From: Escherichia phage HY02
Sequence record: KM092515
Reading direction: 5' to 3' (one strand)
Length of the DNA stretch: 64,000 nucleotides
Positions 23,760-48,727 of the stretch are shown here, piece by piece. How positions within the stretch are numbered: the stretch's first letter is position 1; each line of letters opens with the position of its first letter. The translations under genes and the position numbers were made by a program. The notes under the pieces are model-generated. The model was not told where the DNA came from, did not search any database, and saw only the letters and a list, made by a program, of their open reading frames with translations.

Positions 23760-25175
23760 ATGAGCGAGTTATTTAAACATGCGCACCTTCATGCAGGTCG
23801 AACTGAAAATGGTGCTGTAAACCATACTTCATCAATGTCTGCTCTGGTAGACTTCTACAAAGCCGCTGGTTCAAGCCGTAGCAATGTAGAAATCTTACCA
23901 GACCTGTTCTACAAAGCTTTGCGTGAGGATGTTGATGTTGCAGTTCGTATTTTACTGCATATGCGAGATGTACGAGAAGGTATGGGCGAGCGTAAAGCTT
24001 TCCGAACTGTTTTACTTCAAGCGATTGAAGATAAAGTTTTAGAACCTACACAGGTTCTTCGCATTATGGATAAGATTGTAGAACTTGGTCGTTTTGATGA
24101 CTTCAAAATCTTCGTAGGTACTCGTTTCGAGACAGATGCCTTCAAACATTTAGAAGCAGCATTACTAGACCCTGCAACAGCAGGTTTAGCAGCTAAGTGG
24201 TTACCACGAGTAAAACCACGCCACAAACAGTTTGTAAAACGTTTCTGCAAGTTTGCAAACTTAAGCGAGAAAGAGTACCGCACACTGTTATCTGCACTAT
24301 CTGATACAGTTGAACAAAAAATCTCTGCTAATGAGTTTGGTAAGATTGACTACAGTAAGATTCCTTCACTTGCTGCTGCACGTTACCAAAAGCTCTTTAA
24401 CCGCAAAGATGGAGAACGCTACAAAGCTTACATCGAGTCCTTATCAAAGGGTGAGGCTAAGATTAACGCTGGTGCTGTTTACCCATACGATGTGATTAAA
24501 TCTATTAAGTATGGTAATGCAGATGTTGCTAATGAGCAGTGGAAAGCACTTCCAAACTGGATGGCAGAAGGTGAAAACATCTTGTGTATGACTGATGTTT
24601 CAAGCTCAATGTCTTGGGTGAATCTTGGTTCAATCACTGCTCTGGATATTGGTGTATCACTTGCCTTGTATGTAGCAGAACGTAATACAGGTTGCTTTAA
24701 AGATGAGTTAATGGTTTATTCAACAAACCCTCATTTCATTGAACTGAGTGGTGATTTACGAAACCGTCATCGTCAGGTAATGCGTCATGTTGAATATGGT
24801 TCAACTAACTTACAAGCAGCTTTTGACCGTATTCTTGAGGTAGGCAAGAGAAACAACTTGACTCAGAAAGATATGCCAAGTAAGCTTATTATCTTCTCTG
24901 ATATGGAGTTTAATCAGGTTGATGGTGCAAATGGTCGTACAAACTTTGAAGCAATTCAGAGTAAGTACAAAAAAGCTGGATACGAAATGCCACAACTGGT
25001 ATTCTGGTACTTAGCAAACCGTAATGGTACTTGCGAAGTATCCGTTAAGGATAACGGTGTAGCAATGGTATCAGGGTTCTCTCCAGCAACTTTAAAAGCT
25101 CTGCTTGGTGGTGAGAAGTTTGACCCAATCAGCGTAATGCTTAAAGCAGTAATGATTGACCGTTATATCTGGTAA
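23760..25175 (+). CDS. rsr: Ro60/TROVE-like protein with C-terminal vWA domain (Rsr-like)
   Basis: vWA MIDAS motif DVSSSM (Ro60 has DVSASM); YPYDVIKSIKYG resembles Ro60 HPFHILIALETYK; FSDMEF resembles Ro60 FTDNET; C-terminal GFSPATLKAL resembles Ro60 GFDTGALDVI (from recalled Ro60 sequence, not a search). Confidence 0.65.
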   Translation: MSELFKHAHLHAGRTENGAVNHTSSMSALVDFYKAAGSSRSNVEILPDLFYKALREDVDVAVRILLHMRDVREGMGERKAFRTVLLQAIEDKVLEPTQVLRIMDKIVELGRFDDFKIFVGTRFETDAFKHLEAALLDPATAGLAAKWLPRVKPRHKQFVKRFCKFANLSEKEYRTLLSALSDTVEQKISANEFGKIDYSKIPSLAAARYQKLFNRKDGERYKAYIESLSKGEAKINAGAVYPYDVIKSIKYGNADVANEQWKALPNWMAEGENILCMTDVSSSMSWVNLGSITALDIGVSLALYVAERNTGCFKDELMVYSTNPHFIELSGDLRNRHRQVMRHVEYGSTNLQAAFDRILEVGKRNNLTQKDMPSKLIIFSDMEFNQVDGANGRTNFEAIQSKYKKAGYEMPQLVFWYLANRNGTCEVSVKDNGVAMVSGFSPATLKALLGGEKFDPISVMLKAVMIDRYIW

Positions 25176-25193: not shown

Positions 25194-25222
25194 TTGACAA
25201 TGTGTTTGATACCCTTTAATAT
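25194..25222 (+). promoter_or_regulatory. sigma70-like promoter upstream of the tRNA cluster
   Basis: TTGACA, 17-bp spacer, TAATAT; overlaps an inverted repeat AAGGGTAT...ATACCCTT. Confidence 0.5.
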
Positions 25223-25284: not shown

Positions 25285-25313
25285 TTGACAACCACTAAAA
25301 AATAATGTTAAAG
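25285..25313 (+). promoter_or_regulatory. sigma70-like promoter upstream of the tRNA cluster
   Basis: TTGACA, 17-bp spacer, TTAAAG. Confidence 0.4.
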
Positions 25314-25340
25314 TGGTTACATAGAGTTTGAAAAGTTTAT

Positions 25341-25417
25341 CTCTGTTTAGCTCAGCTTGGTAGAGCGTTCCGTTTGGGGCGGTAAGGCCGGAGGTTCAAG
25401 TCCTCCAACAGAGACCA
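25341..25417 (+). tRNA. tRNA-Pro (UGG)
   Basis: acceptor CTCTGTT/AACAGAG, T-arm GGAGG-TTCAAGT-CCTCC, encoded CCA; anticodon loop TTTGGGG. Confidence 0.55.
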
Positions 25418-25424
25418 AATTAAT

Positions 25425-25502
25425 GTTCCAGTAGACAAAATGGTATAGTCACCACTCTTTCAAAGTGGATATTTGAGGGTTCAAATCCATTCTGGAACGC
25501 CA
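25425..25502 (+). tRNA. tRNA-Glu (UUC)
   Basis: acceptor GTTCCAG/CTGGAAC, anticodon arm CCACT-CTTTCAA-AGTGG, TTCAAAT T-loop with imperfect T-stem. Confidence 0.5.
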
Positions 25503-25509
25503 GTTTTGA

Positions 25510-25582
25510 CAGAAGACCAATTACAGCAAACTTAATCTTATTCATCTGAAGGTAAATCGGACAAAGAAGAGATTTGGTCTGG
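25510..25582 (+). ncRNA. Y-RNA-like element 1 (stem-closed, no tRNA-like domain)
   Basis: 5' CAGAAGACC-AATT...ACAGCAAA and 3' ATTT-GGTCTGG can pair as a terminal stem. Confidence 0.4.
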
Positions 25583-25593
25583 TCATTAAGAAT

Positions 25594-25670
25594 TGCGGGT
25601 ATAGAGAAAGGGCGTCTCACATGTCTCATTAGCATGGTATCGGCAGGTTCGACTCCTGCACCCGCCTCCA
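25594..25670 (+). tRNA. tRNA with CAU anticodon (Met or Ile2), atypical D region
   Basis: T-arm GCAGG-TTCGACT-CCTGC, acceptor TGCGGGT/ACCCGCC with 1-72 mismatch, anticodon arm CATGT-CTCATTA-GCATG, encoded CCA. Confidence 0.4.
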
Positions 25671-25676
25671 ATTTTG

Positions 25677-25736
25677 CAGAAGACCGTATTCAGCAATAAA
25701 CTACTTTTTGCGGATAAAAGAAAAAACACGGTCTGG
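25677..25736 (+). ncRNA. Y-RNA-like element 2
   Basis: 5' CAGAAGACC-GTAT...TCAGCAA and 3' ACAC-GGTCTGG; stem bases co-vary relative to element 1. Confidence 0.4.
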
Positions 25737-25747
25737 CAACGTATTAA

Positions 25748-25821
25748 GGTTAGGAAGCACATGAGGTATGTGCGGTCGCCTGTTAAGCGAATGGCACAGG
25801 GTTCGAATCCCTGACTAACCG
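25748..25821 (+). tRNA. tRNA-Asn (GUU)
   Basis: acceptor GGTTAGG/ACTAACC, D-arm GCAC..GTGC, anticodon loop CTGTTAA, T-arm CAGGG-TTCGAAT-CCCTG. Confidence 0.6.
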
Positions 25822-25832
25822 CAAATTTAAAT

Positions 25833-25920
25833 GTGTCGTTATCCCGTAGATGGTAGCGGTGGGGACTGTAAATCCCTTGTCATTGAGACTCGGTAGGTTC
25901 GACTCCTACACGGCACACCA
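25833..25920 (+). tRNA. tRNA-Tyr (GUA), long variable arm
   Basis: acceptor GTGTCGT/ACGGCAC, anticodon arm GGGGA-CTGTAAA-TCCCT, T-arm GTAGG-TTCGACT-CCTAC, encoded CCA. Confidence 0.6.
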
Positions 25921-25981
25921 ATTTTGAGAGGGCTATTTAGCCCCTCCCTTAAAGGGTTCTTACGAGTATCCTTTAAAGGAG

Positions 25982-26054
25982 CAGAAGACCAAATACAGCA
26001 AGTTATTTAAAATTTCAAGCCAATTCAATTTTGAAAATTTAAAACTTGGTCTGG
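25982..26054 (+). ncRNA. Y-RNA-like element 3 (YrlB-like, no tRNA-like domain)
   Basis: 5' CAGAAGACC-AAAT...ACAGCAAG and 3' CTT-GGTCTGG; interior holds an AT-rich palindrome. Confidence 0.4.
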
Positions 26055-26067
26055 CTCAACAAATTTA

Positions 26068-26199
26068 CAGAAGACCGTTTACAGCAAAACTTAAACAATC
26101 TATTTCTCCGGTAAAGAAAAGGCGAAGGTTCGATTCCTTCACTCGGCAGATGTCGAGTTGGTGTAATGGTAGCACTTAAGATGATAAACAACGGTCTGG
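26068..26199 (+). ncRNA. Y-RNA-like element 4 (YrlA-like) with permuted tRNA-like domain
   Basis: terminal stem AGACCGTT/AACGGTCT; internally T-arm GAAGG-TTCGATT-CCTTC (26124-26140), acceptor-like helix ACTCGGC/GTCGAGT capped by AGAT (26141-26158), D-arm GTGT-AATGGTA-GCAC (26161-26175); T-arm precedes D-arm. Confidence 0.55.
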
Positions 26200-26204
26200 T
26201 AATT

Positions 26205-26339
26205 ATCTTTGTAGATAAGTTATTAAGCTTACCTGTGAGTATGCGACCACAAAGGTGAAAGGGTAAATTCTAGATTTAAACCCAAAAAGACACATCGCTA
26301 CAGACCTTAAGCAAGTCTGGGTAGCTTATCTACAAAGAT
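26205..26339 (+). repeat. structured element closed by a perfect 15-bp inverted repeat
   Basis: ATCTTTGTAGATAAG (26205-26219) and CTTATCTACAAAGAT (26325-26339) flank about 105 nt containing hairpin CAGAC-CTTAAGCAA-GTCTG. Confidence 0.5.
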
Positions 26340-26347
26340 AATTTAAT

Positions 26348-26423
26348 GGAAGTGTAGCAGAATGGTGATGCGGCAGACTTTTAATCTGACAGGCGATGGG
26401 TTCGAATCCCTCCACTTCTACCA
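26348..26423 (+). tRNA. tRNA-Lys (UUU)
   Basis: acceptor GGAAGTG/CACTTCT, anticodon stem CAGA/TCTG with loop CTTTTAA, encoded CCA; T-stem has two mismatches shared with the CUU paralogue. Confidence 0.5.
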
Positions 26424-26427
26424 ATAT

Positions 26428-26504
26428 GGTTCAGTCGCAGATAAGGTAATGCAAGGGTCTCATAAGCCCTATGAATGTGGGTTCGATTCCCATCTGAACC
26501 TCCA
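26428..26504 (+). tRNA. tRNA-Met (CAU)
   Basis: acceptor GGTTCAG/CTGAACC, anticodon arm AGGGT-CTCATAA-GCCCT, T-arm GTGGG-TTCGATT-CCCAT, encoded CCA. Confidence 0.65.
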
Positions 26505-26505
26505 A

Positions 26506-26581
26506 GCTGGTATAGTTAAGAAGGTTATAACACTCCCCTGATAAGGGAACATCGGTGGTTCGATTCCACCTACCAGTACCA
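26506..26581 (+). tRNA. tRNA-Ile (GAU)
   Basis: acceptor GCTGGTA/TACCAGT, D-arm GTTA..TAAC, anticodon loop CTGATAA, T-arm GGTGG-TTCGATT-CCACC, encoded CCA. Confidence 0.65.
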
Positions 26582-26596
26582 ATTTCAATAAAGTTG

Positions 26597-26625
26597 TTGA
26601 CATTGAGATGTGACTACTTTATAGT
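26597..26625 (+). promoter_or_regulatory. internal sigma70-like promoter within the tRNA cluster
   Basis: TTGACA, 17-bp spacer, TATAGT. Confidence 0.5.
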
Positions 26626-26828
26626 AACCTTAGTTTTCGTTGCGTAGCGTCTATTTTGCAAATTTAAAATAAATGCAAACGACAATGTTTTTCTGGCAGT
26701 AGCTTGATAGGCTAAACACCAGTGAGGTCTTCCAATCCCTCATCAAAGAATTTGGCGTACTCGCCCACGGTATGATTAATAAGGTGGGCATCTTTAAGGG
26801 CTTTCTAAGAGAGTCTTTAAAGATTAAT

Positions 26829-26905
26829 GCACCCTTAGTTCAATTGGATAGAGCAACGGTCTTCTAAATCGTTAGTTACAGGTTCGAATCCTGTAGGGTG
26901 TGCCA
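26829..26905 (+). tRNA. tRNA-Arg (UCU)
   Basis: acceptor GCACCCT/AGGGTGT, anticodon arm ACGGT-CTTCTAA-ATCGT, T-arm ACAGG-TTCGAAT-CCTGT, encoded CCA. Confidence 0.65.
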
Positions 26906-27047
26906 ATTAGTTAGCAGATTACTTAGACGACCTAAGCGGGTCTTCCTGTAGGGAGGTGGTCTGTATCTCATGTTTTCCAGAACATGTAAATAATCTGAGA
27001 AGGGGCTTTACAGTGTTGAGATAATACGGTAAGCTTCGAATTATAGT

Positions 27048-27130
27048 ATGGGACGATGTTAAGACTCTAAGGCATGAGCAACGGCCTCCAAAACCGTTTC
27101 AAAGGGGTTCAACTCCTCCGTCCCATGCCA
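27048..27130 (+). tRNA. tRNA-like gene, possibly Trp (CCA); oversized D region
   Basis: acceptor ATGGGAC/GTCCCAT, T-loop TTCAACT, anticodon-like loop CTCCAAA, encoded CCA; 83 nt and D-arm not foldable by eye. Confidence 0.35.
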
Positions 27131-27143
27131 AAGTCTTATTAGG

Positions 27144-27231
27144 GGTAGGTAGCGGCTAATGGTAGCCAAACTGTCTTGAAAACAGTTGCCACTGTAGAGA
27201 TACGGTGAGGGTTCGACTCCTTTACTTACCG
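27144..27231 (+). tRNA. tRNA-Ser (UGA), long variable arm
   Basis: acceptor GGTAGGT/ACTTACC, D-stem GGC/GCC, anticodon arm AACTGT-CTTGAAA-ACAGTT, T-loop TTCGACT. Confidence 0.55.
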
Positions 27232-27489
27232 CCTAATAAGATTTTAAAGCCAAGCTTCATTCGGATGTTGCTTTGGTATCCCTCGTGTATTGTCGTACAC
27301 ACTGATAAAACACCTAGTAGGTGTCACGGAGAAGAGATAATATCAAGCTCTCCAAAGGTTCTAGTCACCGGATTAAACAAGACTATGCAAAGGCCTTTTT
27401 AGGTCTTTTTAGAGGGCTTCTAAGGTTATTACGGCTTGTTGTGGAACCTTGTTGCTTAGGTTCTTAGAAGTTCTCTAAAAAGATTTAAT

Positions 27490-27567
27490 GGGAGATTGAC
27501 GGTAATTGGTAAACCTACCATCCTTAGAAGTTGGTGTTTGAGGGTTCGAATCCCTTGTCTCCCACCA
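27490..27567 (+). tRNA. tRNA with UAG anticodon (Leu-type) but short variable arm
   Basis: acceptor GGGAGAT/GTCTCCC, T-arm GAGGG-TTCGAAT-CCCTT, anticodon loop CTTAGAA, encoded CCA. Confidence 0.4.
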
Positions 27568-27574
27568 AATTAAT

Positions 27575-27650
27575 GCAGGTGTAGCAAAATGGTTATGCGG
27601 CTGACTCTTAATCAGTAAGACGATGGGTTCAATTCCCTCCACCTGTACCA
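27575..27650 (+). tRNA. tRNA-Lys (CUU)
   Basis: acceptor GCAGGTG/CACCTGT, anticodon stem CTGA/TCAG with loop CTCTTAA, encoded CCA; body paralogous to 26348-26423. Confidence 0.5.
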
Positions 27651-27656
27651 AACAAT

Positions 27657-27732
27657 GGGGTCATAGTTTATATGGTTAAAATTCGAGTTTTGCAAACTTG
27701 GGAACTGAGTTCAATTCTCAGTGACTCCACCA
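27657..27732 (+). tRNA. tRNA-Ala (UGC)
   Basis: acceptor GGGGTCA/TGACTCC, anticodon loop TTTGCAA, T-arm CTGAG-TTCAATT-CTCAG, encoded CCA. Confidence 0.6.
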
Positions 27733-27738
27733 ATTAGT

Positions 27739-27813
27739 GCATCCATAGTTTAAACGGGAAAATTACAGTCTTCCAAACTGAGGTTGAGGGTTCGATTCCC
27801 TCTGGATGCTCCA
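27739..27813 (+). tRNA. tRNA-Gly (UCC)
   Basis: acceptor GCATCCA/TGGATGC, anticodon stem CAGT/ACTG with loop CTTCCAA, T-arm GAGGG-TTCGATT-CCCTC, encoded CCA. Confidence 0.65.
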
Positions 27814-27820
27814 AATTAAT

Positions 27821-27896
27821 GCTCCTATCGTATAATTGGCTATTACGGTTGCCTTGTAAGCAACTTATCAGGGTTCGAATCCTTGTGGGAGCACCA
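27821..27896 (+). tRNA. tRNA-Thr (UGU)
   Basis: acceptor GCTCCTA/TGGGAGC, anticodon arm GTTGC-CTTGTAA-GCAAC, T-arm CAGGG-TTCGAAT-CCTTG, encoded CCA. Confidence 0.7.
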
Positions 27897-27993
27897 ATTT
27901 AGAGGTCAAGTGAAAGACCGCTTTGAGTCAACTGAAGACCGTAACAAATTCCACGGAGTTGAGTTAGCGGCACAACTTCAGACCTCTTTTCAC

Positions 27994-28068
27994 ACTCGCT
28001 TAGTTTATATGGTAAAACATCACCCTTACAAGATGAAGAAAAAGGTTCAAGTCCTTTAGTGAGTACCA
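27994..28068 (+). tRNA. tRNA-Val (UAC)
   Basis: acceptor ACTCGCT/AGTGAGT, anticodon loop CTTACAA, T-arm AAAGG-TTCAAGT-CCTTT, encoded CCA. Confidence 0.6.
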
Positions 28069-28069
28069 T

Positions 28070-28147
28070 GTTCCAGTATCCCAATTGGCAGAGGATGCAA
28101 GCTCAAACCTTGTACTAGTGACGGTTCGAATCCGTCTTGGAACACCA
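28070..28147 (+). tRNA. tRNA with CAA anticodon (Leu-type) but short variable arm
   Basis: acceptor GTTCCAG/TTGGAAC, anticodon arm GCAAG-CTCAAAC-CTTGT, T-arm GACGG-TTCGAAT-CCGTC, encoded CCA. Confidence 0.45.
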
Positions 28148-28152
28148 ATTTT

Positions 28153-28228
28153 GCAGGATTAGTTCAAATGGATAGAGCAACAGTCTACGAAGCTGTTAAT
28201 AGGGGTTCGAATCCCTTATCCTGCGCCA
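28153..28228 (+). tRNA. tRNA-Arg (ACG)
   Basis: acceptor GCAGGAT/ATCCTGC, anticodon arm ACAGT-CTACGAA-GCTGT, T-arm AGGGG-TTCGAAT-CCCTT, encoded CCA. Confidence 0.65.
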
Positions 28229-28247
28229 ATTTAAAGAGGCTATTTAA

Positions 28248-28805
28248 ATGAGATACTTGAAGTATGCTTCATGGATTTTCTTAGCTTTGCTAGAACCATT
28301 GGCAGCAATCTTAGCAGTTATCTTAGCACCTTTTGTAGTTCCATTTTACAGTGAGAAGAAAGGACACTTACCTTTTGGATTCAGATGGATGGAGACATAT
28401 GACAACCTGATTGATGGTGATGAAGGTCACGTTAAAAGATGGGCTAAGATTAGAAAGATTGGTAAGCTTGGTGTCTATTTGCAGAGAGTTGGATGGCTCT
28501 GGAGAAACAAAGCTTATAACTTCTCTTACCATGTGTTAGGAAGAGATGTAAAAGATGTTACTAAGTGGAAAGGTAATATCAACGTAAGTTCTGACCCTGA
28601 AGATAATCAGACAGGTTATCTCCTAATGTGGAACAGTAATGCTTGGGGATTATTCGCTTTTATCCCATCAATTAAAGTCTTTGGTAAACAATTCTACTGG
28701 AGAATTTATGTTGGATGGAAGCTAAAAAGTGTTGTCCCAGAAGAAAGAGCATTCTCAAGGGAAAGAGTTATGTTGGCATTCTTTATTCATCCACTGAGAA
28801 AGTAA
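28248..28805 (+). CDS. hypothetical membrane protein embedded in the tRNA cluster
   Basis: 185-aa ORF with N-terminal hydrophobic helix (IFLALLEPLAAILAVILAPFVVPF); lies between tRNA-Arg and tRNA-Gln. Confidence 0.5.
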   Translation: MRYLKYASWIFLALLEPLAAILAVILAPFVVPFYSEKKGHLPFGFRWMETYDNLIDGDEGHVKRWAKIRKIGKLGVYLQRVGWLWRNKAYNFSYHVLGRDVKDVTKWKGNINVSSDPEDNQTGYLLMWNSNAWGLFAFIPSIKVFGKQFYWRIYVGWKLKSVVPEERAFSRERVMLAFFIHPLRK

Positions 28806-28813
28806 AGATTTAA

Positions 28814-28889
28814 AGGGGATTAGTTTACAAGGTTAAAACCTCGGTCTTTGAAATCGAAGAAGTTGGTTCAATTCCAACATCCCCCGCCA
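28814..28889 (+). tRNA. tRNA-Gln (UUG)
   Basis: acceptor AGGGGAT/ATCCCCC with unpaired 1-72, D-arm GTTT..AAAC, anticodon arm TCGGT-CTTTGAA-ATCGA, T-arm GTTGG-TTCAATT-CCAAC, encoded CCA. Confidence 0.65.
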
Positions 28890-28891
28890 AT

Positions 28892-28970
28892 GCTCCATTA
28901 CTCCAATTGGCAGAGAGGCCAGACTTAAAATCTGTGTTATGTATCGGTTCGAATCCGATATGGAGTACCA
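28892..28970 (+). tRNA. tRNA with UAA anticodon (Leu-type), atypical architecture
   Basis: acceptor GCTCCAT/ATGGAGT (alternative TACTCCA/TGGAGTA), anticodon stem CAGA/TCTG with loop CTTAAAA, T-arm ATCGG-TTCGAAT-CCGAT, encoded CCA. Confidence 0.45.
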
Positions 28971-28975
28971 AATTT

Positions 28976-29051
28976 AGCGGTATAGCATAACTGGCAATGC
29001 AGCAGTCTCTGAAGCTGTCTTATTAAGGTTCAAATCCTTATGCCGCTGCCA
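28976..29051 (+). tRNA. tRNA-Gln (CUG)
   Basis: acceptor AGCGGTA/TGCCGCT (A1-U72), D-arm GCAT..ATGC, anticodon arm GCAGT-CTCTGAA-GCTGT, T-arm TAAGG-TTCAAAT-CCTTA, encoded CCA. Confidence 0.55.
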
Positions 29052-29082
29052 CTTCTAAGGATTCTTACGAGAGTCCTTAGAA

Positions 29083-29158
29083 GTGGCCTTATCATAAATG
29101 GTAATGACCCATGCTGTGAACATGGTCTATACGGGTTCAAATCCCGTAGGTCACCCCA
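29083..29158 (+). tRNA. tRNA-His (GUG)
   Basis: acceptor GTGGCCT/AGGTCAC, anticodon arm CCATG-CTGTGAA-CATGG, T-arm ACGGG-TTCAAAT-CCCGT, encoded CCA. Confidence 0.7.
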
Positions 29159-29163
29159 ATTTA

Positions 29164-29240
29164 TAGTCCAAGTAGCTTATATGGTTAAAGCGCGTGTCTG
29201 AAAAACATGAGAAGAGGGTTCAAATCCCACTGGACTACCA
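29164..29240 (+). tRNA. tRNA-Phe (GAA)
   Basis: acceptor TAGTCCA/TGGACTA, D-stem GCTT/AAGC, anticodon arm CGTGT-CTGAAAA-ACATG, TTCAAAT T-loop; spacing between acceptor and D-stem is non-canonical. Confidence 0.5.
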
Positions 29241-29256
29241 ATTTCAAAGGTGCTTA

Positions 29257-29991
29257 ATGAAAGAGATGACAGAACAAGGTAAGGAGATTTTTAATCTCTT
29301 AAAAACTGGTAAAGGGTTTTCTAACCCCCTTATTACTGGTGCAGCAGTTCTCGGTGGAACCGTAGCTGCCTCTACATCACTTGTAAGCTCTATTAGCTCT
29401 GTATCAGACCCTACAGTAAAGGATAAGCTTGTTGCTGCTGGACTTACAACAGTTCTGCTTAACAGCTTTACCACGAGTCTGACAAGCACTACATCAACTA
29501 CCAAAACACTAACAGATTACGGTCAAAAGTCCATTGATGAGTTTTCATCACGTATGCAGGTAGCAAAAGGTTACTCTAATGTTATGGGTGCAGCAGGTGA
29601 ACAAGTTGGCTGTACACCATTTAGTGGTATTATGGGTGTTGCTACAGAGTATGGTCAAAAAGCTATTGATACGATTAACAGTGCACTAGATAGTGTTAAT
29701 GGTGTGTTAAGTGACTTACAAGATGCTATTGACAAAGGTCTTGATACTATTTCTGATTTAGCTGAGCAAGCTGTTAGTAAGATTAATGAAGGTATTTCAA
29801 AAATTACAGCTTATGCAGATGAAGTTGTGCAGATGATTGAAGAAGAAGCTGCTCTTATTGCAGAGTACCTTAAAACGAATATCAATGGGTTCTTAGCAGG
29901 TATCTTACCAGACTGGTTTGATGATGCTTGTAAAACTGGTGTGATTGACACTATTGCAACACCAGAAATGAAGAACGCATTACAGAAATAA
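29257..29991 (+). CDS. hypothetical Ser/Thr-rich protein
   Basis: ORF track start 29194 overlaps tRNA-Phe; in-frame ATG at 29257 follows GGTGCTTA, the same context as the terminase start. Confidence 0.5.
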   Translation: MKEMTEQGKEIFNLLKTGKGFSNPLITGAAVLGGTVAASTSLVSSISSVSDPTVKDKLVAAGLTTVLLNSFTTSLTSTTSTTKTLTDYGQKSIDEFSSRMQVAKGYSNVMGAAGEQVGCTPFSGIMGVATEYGQKAIDTINSALDSVNGVLSDLQDAIDKGLDTISDLAEQAVSKINEGISKITAYADEVVQMIEEEAALIAEYLKTNINGFLAGILPDWFDDACKTGVIDTIATPEMKNALQK

Positions 29992-29992
29992 T

Positions 29993-30085
29993 GGAAGATT
30001 AACCCTAAAAGGTAAGGGAGCAGTTTGCTAAACTGCCAGTAGCTGAGAAATCGGTGTACCAGTTCAAGTCTGGTATCTTCCTCCA
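29993..30085 (+). tRNA. tRNA-Ser (GCU), long variable arm
   Basis: acceptor GGAAGAT/ATCTTCC, D-stem CCC/GGG, anticodon arm GCAGT-TTGCTAA-ACTGC, T-arm ACCAG-TTCAAGT-CTGGT, encoded CCA. Confidence 0.65.
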
Positions 30086-30089
30086 ATTT

Positions 30090-30165
30090 GAATCCGTGAC
30101 AGAAATGGCTATGTGCCTGTCTGCAAAACAGGTTTATAAGGGTTCGAGTCCCTTCGGATTCTCCA
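30090..30165 (+). tRNA. tRNA-Cys (GCA)
   Basis: acceptor GAATCCG/CGGATTC, anticodon arm CCTGT-CTGCAAA-ACAGG, T-arm AAGGG-TTCGAGT-CCCTT, encoded CCA. Confidence 0.65.
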
Positions 30166-47258: not shown

Positions 47259-48727
47259 TGGCAGGATTAACTACAACAGGATTACAAACTCTAAGATATC
47301 AGGAAATTTTTGATAATATTAAGTCACGACTTCTTAGAGATATTTCACCCAACCTTGACGCTTCTGAAGATAGCCAATTAGGACTCTTCCTAGCTTCAAT
47401 TGCAAGGTCTTTAGCAGATACTCATGAGATTCTATCAGAAATCTACGATGGGGGTACGATTGATAAGGCTGAAGGCTTTAACCTTGATGATATTACAGCT
47501 TTAAATGCGGTATACAGATATGTTGCTCAGGCAACAAGAGGTCAAGTTGAGTTTACTGGAATGACTGGTGCTACCATTCCTTCAACAACAAGATTAAGAA
47601 GTACTGCCGGAAACATCTTTTATCCAGTTAATAACATTACCCTTACTCCATCATATTGTGTTGAAGCTATCCTTGAAGTTAACTCTTTACGAACTGATGC
47701 AGATTATGTTATTATTATTGATAACGTCATTTTCTCATATAAACCAACCTCATTAGACACAATCACCACGCTGCTAACAAAATTAGCAGAAGCTATTAAT
47801 GGTGGTATTGTAGCAAAAGCAGAAGTCATTAATGATGGAGCCGCACTAAGAGTCTATAAAGACGAGGGTGATATCATTGCAAGAACAAACCCTATGGTTG
47901 TCACTGCAACAACGTTTCTAACCTTTACAAAAATTACAACTATTTCAGATGTAGTAGCTGAAGAGGTTGGTGCTACACCTGCTTTGGCTGGTACGCTTAT
48001 TGAGATTGAGACAACTGTTGATGGTCTTGACAGTATTTATAACAGGTATGACTTAACAACTGGTAGAAACGAAGAAACTGACACAGAACTTAGACAGAGA
48101 TATTTAGAATCTTTAGCAGTTACTGGTGTAGGGACTTTGGATGCAATTGTAGCTGCTGTTAAAAGAGTTCAAGGTGTCTCAGATGCTTCAGGTGTTGAAA
48201 ATGATACTGAAGAGACAAACTCAGAAGGTCTTCCACCAAAATCTTTTAAGATTGTTGTAGTTGGTGGTCAAAATGATAATGTTGCTCAAGCAATCTGGGA
48301 TACAAAACCTGCTGGTATTAGGGCTTATGGCTCAATTTTTGGTACAGCCCATGATTTAGGTGGTTTGGCACATAATATTTATTTTAGCAGACCAACACCA
48401 AAATACGCATTTGTTAAAGTCTCTTACTCTTTATATGATGAAGAAAGCTTGACAATCCCTGAAGAGGATATCAGAGACAGCATTGTACAAGGTATTAATG
48501 CTTATGGAAGAACTCTTAAGGTTGGTAATGATGTTATCCCTAACAGAATCTATGGATATATCTATGACGTGATTAAAGGTATTGAGATTAATGAGGTTAA
48601 AGTAGCCTTATCAAACAACCAATCAGTCCCACCTAGTGACGGGCAGTATACTACAGCAAGAATTACTGTTGACGGTGACCAATATACTGTTTGGGAAAGC
48701 AGCCAGTATACCATCACTAAGGAGTAA
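47258..48727 (+). CDS. baseplate J-like protein
   Basis: 489-aa ORF in P2-like V-W-J-I order. Confidence 0.45.

Follow-up and report, generated by a model that had tools for sequence, protein, structure and literature searches.

Phage tRNA clusters are usually annotated as tRNA genes separated by spacers or by spurious small ORFs, as in Felix O1 and wV8. The cluster of phage T4 also yields the species 1 and 2 RNAs (RNA C and D), which are stable, are released by host processing enzymes and have no known function; of the two, species 1 serves as an RNase III substrate in vitro. The classical requirement of E. coli RNase III is about two turns of near-perfect duplex. T4 is not known to have a Ro60-like gene.

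Three further systems described in the literature bear on the locus presented here. Close to their 5' end, YrlA RNAs have the motif GNCGAAN0-1G (Chen et al. 2014, PMC4201824). For the Felixounavirus Bas63, a preprint independently reports that the protein gp130 resembles Ro60, has its gene upstream of the tRNA genes and acts against the ppl defence (10.1101/2024.10.10.617714); on whether Y RNAs could be among the annotated tRNAs it offers only speculation (10.1101/2024.10.10.617714). The Class I RNAs of Dictyostelids start with AAG, form a 6-bp stem of variable sequence, carry CCUUACAGCAA and end in CUGU (PMC7919456). Their discoverers found them in no other organism (PMC7919456).

We analysed a stretch of 64,000 nt from Escherichia phage HY02 (record KM092515), which as a whole is called the window below. 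The phage is a Felixounavirus: ~300 Ounavirinae phage genomes match the region, the nearest being Felix O1, wV8 and the relatives of VpaE1, all Felixounavirus. A cluster of 25 tRNAs spans 25341-30165, all on the + strand, and contains an element, at 26201-26343, whose immediate neighbours are a small RNA that we call the C RNA upstream and tRNA-Lys downstream. Comparative evidence indicates that this apparent spacer is a selected RNA fold in three genera, whose members are used in therapy and typing and infect E. coli, Salmonella, Shigella and Citrobacter. The element lies within an apparent RNP locus, consisting of a Ro60-fold protein and at least four partner-like RNAs.

Inverted repeat and predicted fold

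An exact 15-bp inverted repeat, with ATCTTTGTAGATAAG at 26205-26219 on the + strand and its reverse complement at 26325-26339, encloses 105 nt (26220-26324), in which the hairpin CAGAC-CTTAAGCAA-GTCTG is found at 26301-26319. The first-pass annotation of this DNA had reported a perfect 15-bp repeat, an interior of about 105 nt and the inner hairpin, and all three were confirmed. Each arm is present once, with no other exact copy in the 64-kb window. With one mismatch the repeat grows to 22 nt at 95% complementarity (26201-26222 / 26322-26343), and as RNA, counting G·U, the closing helix has 24 base pairs. Chance is an improbable source of the repeat: when the window was dinucleotide-shuffled 100 times, only 2 of the resulting sequences held any perfectly inverted 15-mer within 150 nt. 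The predicted folding energy of the 143-nt RNA (26201-26343) was −45.5 kcal/mol, compared with −24.0 ± 3.5 kcal/mol for shuffled sequences (z = −6.1), a value that none of 200 shuffles equalled. Its minimum-energy fold is a four-way junction of helices P1-P4 (Table 1).

Table 1. Coordinates of the parts of the element and of neighbouring features of the window
Feature	Position	Strand	Remarks
Gene for 471-aa DUF2828+DUF7788 protein, Ro60 (TROVE+vWA) fold	23760-25175	+	~1 kb upstream of the element
Two sigma-70-like promoters	25194-25222, 25285-25314	+	Upstream of the element
Three RNAs of the neighbouring family	25514-25581, 25681-25735, 25986-26053	+	Among tRNAs; weak RF01414 matches
C RNA, AGACCG-UUUACAGCAA...CGGUCUG	26072-26198	+	Fourth family member; 3' end abuts P1
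P1, 5' strand (closing helix)	26201-26224	+	Holds 15-nt arm 26205-26219; minimum-energy fold
P2 hairpin	26229-26258	+	Minimum-energy fold; types 1 and 2 hard to align
P3 hairpin, loop UUCUAGA	26261-26283	+	GAUUCUAGAUU invariant across types 1 and 2
J3/4, single-stranded linker	26284-26300	+	C-N-CUA kept immediately 5' of P4
P4 hairpin, CAGAC-CUUAAGCAA-GUCUG	26301-26319	+	Apparent degenerate version of the terminal stem/AGCAA module found in the neighbouring RNAs
P1, 3' strand	26320-26343	+	Ends 4 nt short of tRNA-Lys (26348)
tRNA-Lys(UUU)	26348-26423	+	Directly downstream of the element
Possible paralogue hairpin, 26-bp stem	27399-27488	+	z = −5.7; ends 1 nt before tRNA-Leu (27490)

Two types of the element in three genera

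Sequences with at least 95% identity to the element, which we call type 1, occurred in ~188 phage records, Felix O1-like. Type 2 has equal length and architecture and takes the place of type 1 between the upstream small RNA and tRNA-Lys; its carriers include some Felixounavirus (pSJ21, fKMPT1, CRP22, SPJ41 and JLBYU32), Mooglevirus (Sf19, Mordin, Michonne and Silverhawkium) and Suspvirus (SUSP2 and mistaenkt). The interiors of the two types are only about half identical. The element was always at the same position, and no empty site was found among ~260 relatives. The protein encoded upstream is 97% identical between type 1 and type 2 phages, the flanking RNAs are nearly identical, and the boundaries of the type 1/type 2 mosaic are sharp and lie at the base of the repeat. 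From these near-identical surroundings we infer that recombination has swapped the two types, its breakpoints falling at the foot of P1. The two types appear functionally interchangeable, as judged from this pattern; element type did not co-segregate with protein variant.

With the pattern TTCTAGATT...CTACARACC, no third type was found in IMG/VR, nor among the metagenome matches listed, types 1 and 2 alone being seen in both. A stem-only pattern, TCTTTGYAG...CTRCAAAGR, proved unspecific in IMG/VR; ~119 loci were returned, four of them genuine.

Across genera, type 2 is 90.7% identical in the element itself, compared with 86.4% and 80.5% in the two small RNAs upstream, B and C, and 97.4% in tRNA-Lys. 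Three of its unpaired stretches, CGUCCCAUGAGUGCCGA, GCAUGAUUCUAGAUUAGCUUA and CCCUUUAGCAAGG, are invariant over the three genera.

Selection on RNA structure

A joint alignment (A4) of 23 distinct sequences, covering both types, was scored against a structure that we specified as P1, the tip of P3, and P4. Standard pairs filled 97.5% of its pair cells, compared with 27–47% when the partners were slid by 1–3 columns, and the covariation score was matched by none of 500 shuffles. Five pairs were changed on both sides (5:149, 13:141, 20:134, 25:129 and 110:126). P1, with 24 pairs, was 98.3% paired, with four double-sided changes and one paired indel; type 2 lacks both partners of pair 16:138. At columns 110:126, in P4, G-C becomes A-U, and the P4 stem CAGACC/GGUCUG reads CAAACC/GGUUUG in Moogle- and Suspviruses. 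RNAalifold, given type 2 alone, predicted the same architecture, again with five pairs changed on both sides. The lower stem of P3 covaries at three pairs in type 2. The loop of P2 shares UGAGU..GC.GA between the types, and support for a P2 counterpart in type 2 is weak. The independent evolutionary events behind these counts are few, because only two types plus minor variants exist. The covariation support is convincing for P1, P3 and P4 in this alignment and thin for P2.

The pairing is also strand-specific. Pairs 18:136, 19:135, 21:133, 24:130, 73:83 and 76:80 of A4 include G·U, in whose place the opposite strand would have A·C mismatches, and a covariance model built from A4 scored 139.8 bits on the + strand of the window and 37.7 bits on the − strand. 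Taken together, these comparisons show selection for an RNA fold, formed on the tRNA (+) strand and kept in three genera, with loops constrained in sequence. The initial suggestion of a structured ncRNA or a processing site thus gains support from a four-helix architecture kept with compensatory changes and strand-specific G·U pairs. Comparative genomics, which had been proposed as a check, came out in its favour, with two diverged versions in three genera, a deletion matched on both strands and an identity within type 2 above that of the flanking small RNAs. A chance palindrome, as an account of the repeat, was rejected on the shuffles and the comparative pairing evidence.

No Rfam family matched the element at either gathering or permissive thresholds. 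The element is thus absent from Rfam, and in the genomes it is unannotated or mis-annotated as an ORF. An opposite-strand ORF that runs across the C RNA and the element is annotated as a hypothetical protein in Felix O1 (ORF94, AF320576 24573-24803) and wV8 (gp48, gene 48), and its counterpart in the window is 26039-26295 (−); no ORF of at least 60 aa overlaps the element in the window.

Transcription and the surrounding cluster

On the + strand, no promoter-like or terminator-like site was found from the two sigma-70-like promoters to the element. The first promoter-like site 3' of the element is weak (9/12) and lies within tRNA genes at 26487-26516; a strong site (11/12) first follows at 26597. 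Terminator-like sites were not found on the + strand between the 25194/25285 promoters and 26597. With no promoter or terminator intervening, the element is most likely co-transcribed with tRNA-Pro through tRNA-Ile, and most likely belongs to one early polycistronic tRNA/small-RNA unit.

Several other features of the cluster were noted. At 25920-25921, between tRNA-Tyr and the spacer that follows, this phage has no tRNA-Asp gene, unlike most relatives; some relatives have an HNH homing endonuclease gene inserted just 5' of tRNA-Asp. The 62 nt before the B RNA (25921-25982) contain two hairpins, GAGAGGGCUAUUUAGCCCCUC and CUUAAAGGGUUCUUACGAGUAUCCUUUAAAGG, and show ~95% identity between genera, above that of the small RNAs downstream. 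A weak tRNA-like match (tRNA-Sec model, 23 bits) at 27050-27124 was uncalled by ARAGORN; relatives annotate a tRNA or pseudo-tRNA nearby. A near-perfect 18-bp hairpin with a 4-nt loop, at 29048-29087, fills the gap between tRNA-Gln and tRNA-His and overlaps both tRNA ends.

A Ro60-like protein and its neighbouring RNAs

The 471-aa protein encoded upstream (PHROG 850, 'RNA-binding protein') is a homologue of Bas63 gp130. We modelled it with AlphaFold from an alignment of 29 homologues (pLDDT 81.8), a single-sequence model with a pLDDT of 44 having been discarded. In a Foldseek search of the PDB, the top 11 matches were all Ro60/TROVE proteins, matched over the full length (E = 2.5e-9 to 1.7e-7, TM 0.5–0.64); they include Xenopus Ro60, Deinococcus Rsr and the Ro60 of Thermus phage phiLo. 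The model has a TROVE ring and a vWA domain with a MIDAS-like motif, DVSSSM. There was no TROVE match for this protein at the sequence level, and a profile search of PDB sequences missed Ro60, which the fold search alone found.

Four RNAs between this gene and the element share a layout: an (A/U)AG-stem of variable sequence, then U(A/U)CAGCAA, a variable module and a closing stem-CUG. The C RNA also has tRNA-like parts in an order permuted as in YrlA, namely the T arm GAAGGUUCGAUUCCUUC, then an acceptor-like hairpin, then the D arm GUUGGUGUAAUGGUAGCAC; it gave a partial tRNA match of 22 bits and no match to RF02553. The same layout was found beside DUF2828 genes in phage contigs whose proteins are 39–48% identical, with stems that covary freely. 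In 76 distant DUF2828 loci, strict matches to the layout numbered 71 on the strand of the gene and 2 on the opposite strand, and 38 of the 76 loci had them. Several distant family members have tRNA-like arms (e.g. in L173 from ~5424, L162 from ~3791 and L145 from ~319). None of the distant family matches (loci L139-L214) reached an Rfam threshold.

Like the Dictyostelid Class I RNAs (RF01414), the four neighbouring RNAs have the (A)AG start, a short variable stem, UUACAGCAA beside the 5' strand, a variable middle and the CUG(U) end. By these shared features, the phage RNA family appears to be a counterpart of the Dictyostelid Class I RNAs.

Two other places in the window were considered in this connection. 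A strict-motif match at 48645-48689 lies within a coding region and was dismissed as chance. The hairpin GACC-TAAGCG-GGTC, earlier placed at 26925-26940 and described as related to P4, does exist, with its true position at 26929-26942, 2–4 nt away. In the minimum-energy fold of its spacer this stretch pairs otherwise, as AGACGACC...GGUGGUCUG. The segment 26918-26964, AGACGACC-UAAGCGGG...GGUGGUCUG, which includes it, has AG...CUG ends and is without CAGCAA; it is a possible degenerate member of the neighbouring-RNA family.

Proposed processing of the transcript

The hairpin that precedes tRNA-Leu (Table 1) has arms, AUCUUUnUAGA / UCUAnAAAGAU, related to those of the element, and the same UUUAAU-GG junction to the tRNA. 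It is conserved, with G·U pairs possible on the + strand only and one compensatory change, and its apical loop, UUGUUGCUU(A), is kept across genera. That loop (UUGCUUA) is complementary to the P4 loop UAAGCAA, over 7 nt here and 5 nt in type 2 phages; it is also complementary to the AGCAA of the partner-RNA motif. The presence of a second hairpin with related arms and junction speaks for the involvement of such helices in precursor maturation.

RNase III acts on near-uninterrupted duplex of ~20 bp or more; P1 offers 22 Watson-Crick pairs with one G·U, 24 bp in all, and its length is retained in type 2. By this measure P1 is a likely substrate of RNase III. Given the length of the helix, P1 would be cut by the host RNase III or would at minimum act as an exonuclease barrier. 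RNase P would cut 4 nt downstream of P1, at tRNA-Lys. The two cuts would excise the domain and split the block of Ro60-partner-like RNAs from the tRNA-Lys/Met/Ile block, and the excised domain would last as a stable small RNA. It would be more than waste, because its inner hairpins and loops are conserved beyond the needs of a spacer. Our preferred reading, to which we give about an even chance, is that a stable, structured RNA is processed out of the transcript, serves at the same time as a processing or insulating module, and may have ties to a Ro60-like RNP.

Part of this evidence would also suit a pure processing spacer, with the helix as a signal for RNase III or a barrier to exonucleases and the excised piece degraded and without function. 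The near-perfect helix keeps its length of 22–24 bp even through the paired deletion, and a hairpin with related arms stands at the same junction before tRNA-Leu. The interiors of the two types also differ strongly amid neighbouring genes of 97% identity; such divergence suggests that the interior is interchangeable. A bare RNase III site, however, has no need of three conserved inner hairpins. Nor would it call for the unpaired stretches that type 2 keeps invariant over three genera, for a P3 loop and P4 hairpin common to both types, or for an identity higher than that of the flanking small RNAs. We consider a functionless spacer rather unlikely.

P4 and the known RNA classes

With its flanks, P4 reads CUAC-AGACC-UUAAGCAA-GUCUGG-GUAG; the terminal module of the C RNA reads UUAC-AGA-AGACCG-UUUACAGCAA...CGGUCUGG-UAA. 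P4 thus resembles the C RNA module minus its middle, and an origin by duplication is plausible from this likeness. The first-pass annotation had remarked that the hairpin echoes 'Y-RNA-like ends'. The match between P4 with its flanks and the C RNA bears out the echo, and the ends themselves find a basis in the Ro60-fold gene upstream and in the RNA family that travels with it. In the preferred reading, of a processed stable RNA, P4 would descend from the module at the ends of the neighbouring RNAs, in which case contacts between the domain and the Ro60-like protein, or the RNAs of that protein, may persist.

A stronger version of this idea makes the element a fifth partner RNA of the Ro60-like protein, a Y-RNA analogue in which P4 would bind the protein and P2 and P3 would serve as effector arms. 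The gene lies close by, its Bas63 homologue counters ppl according to the preprint, P4 with its flanks comes close to the module that ends the four neighbouring RNAs, and in distant phages the strict matches above place this module alongside the gene. The details of P4 speak against it. The U(A/U)CAGCAA motif is absent from P4, which has UUAAGCAA in type 1 and UUUAGCAA in type 2; the loop letters are AAGCAA or UAGCAA where the family has CAGCAA, and the C is absent in 23 of 23 sequences. Type 1 fits the AG...CUG signature (AGAC/GUCU, then G), and type 2 has the pair changed (AAACC/GGUUU, then G). The stem is internal rather than at the RNA termini, and it has no variable module, closing straight after AGCAA. 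A strict scan for the family motif did not report the element.

The wider searches also count against a fifth partner. Searched with the covariance model of the element, the 76 distant loci that encode a DUF2828 protein yielded no homologue, and minimal AGCAA hairpins near DUF2828 genes in distant phages were not enriched (55 on the + strand, 44 on the − strand). One candidate homologue, a CAGCAA-hairpin spacer of locus L139, was rejected for its different architecture. Between 25960 and 26347, no match to RF02553 (YrlA; gathering threshold 69 bits) was found even at E ≤ 10 with permissive filters, and the sole match in the tRNA cluster scored 17.3 bits, over tRNA-His/Phe. The element lacks GNCGAAN0-1G, even the string CGAA being missing from 26201-26343, and neither ARAGORN nor the Rfam tRNA model found tRNA-like T or D arms there. 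The loop of P3, UUCUAGA, is only loosely T-loop-like and is without a GG D-loop partner. With the tested YrlA features and the hallmarks of the Class I-like family lacking, we file the element as neither a Y RNA nor a Class I-like RNA. With the element type also uncoupled from the protein variant, a fifth partner RNA seems unlikely.

A broader possibility, which we likewise regard as doubtful, is that the element is a component or regulator of an undescribed phage RNP made up of the Ro60-fold protein and a battery of small RNAs, modulated by the P4 loop or by the loop of 27399-27488. If that were true, the P4 loop UAAGCAA or the loop UUGCUUA would be a decoy or competitor for the protein, or would pair with the AGCAA of a partner. 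The small RNAs of this battery have the architecture and the UUACAGCAA...CUG signature of Class I RNAs, until now regarded as unique to social amoebae.

Explanations other than RNA

At the level of DNA, a terminal inverted repeat around ~100 bp, with sharp mosaic boundaries at its base and a second inverted repeat of similar arms 1.2 kb away, might be a mobile element of the miniature inverted-repeat kind, or else a palindrome that binds a protein or forms a cruciform. The element is, however, single-copy in the window and has neither an empty site among the relatives nor a target-site duplication or other flanking direct repeat. Its arms tolerate G·U, equivalent to A·C mismatches in DNA, and its interior is likewise conserved and structured. 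We hold a DNA-level feature to be highly improbable. An opposite-strand protein-coding gene, as in the GenBank annotations of 76–85 aa ORFs in some type 1 phages, is scarcely credible, since the frame is shortened to 30 aa here by a 1-nt indel, is missing from all type 2 phages and crosses the tRNA-like C RNA, so that the ORF94/gp48 annotation is probably spurious. Even together, the DNA-level and coding explanations have very little in their favour.

Comparison with known systems

The main surprise lies in the surroundings, where a phage Ro60-like protein stands with Class I-like partner RNAs. The RNA family connects these phage RNAs with the Dictyostelid Class I RNAs. A full inventory of the RNAs of the locus is needed to explain both the ppl counter-defence and the maturation of phage tRNAs.

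Compared with the Class I-like RNAs themselves, the element has in P4 a shortened version of their signature, AGAC-CUUAAGCAA-GUCUG. Its motif differs from theirs in lying in a closed 9-nt loop, buried in a larger fold, and RF01414 does not match it.

The comparison with Y RNAs (YrlA, RF02553, bound by Ro60 or Rsr) is likewise mixed. Like them, the element is small and structured, has its 5' and 3' ends in a long closing helix, and lies on the same strand near a Ro60-fold gene, beside a tRNA-like RNA (the C RNA). It differs from them in lacking GNCGAAN0-1G, a T/D arm and an RF02553 match, and the protein is of the DUF2828+DUF7788 kind, without a TROVE domain recognizable in sequence.

In kind, by analogy, the element resembles the known stable RNAs of phage tRNA clusters and the RNase III hairpins. 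Like the species 1 and 2 RNAs of the T4 cluster, going by their general description, it is a non-tRNA RNA of ~140 nt that is apparently co-transcribed with tRNAs. With the RNase III hairpins of the T7 early region and the rRNA operon stems it shares about two turns of near-uninterrupted duplex placed between RNAs of a polycistronic transcript. Those hairpins are typically simple, often with an internal loop, whereas the helix of the element caps a three-hairpin junction with constrained loops.
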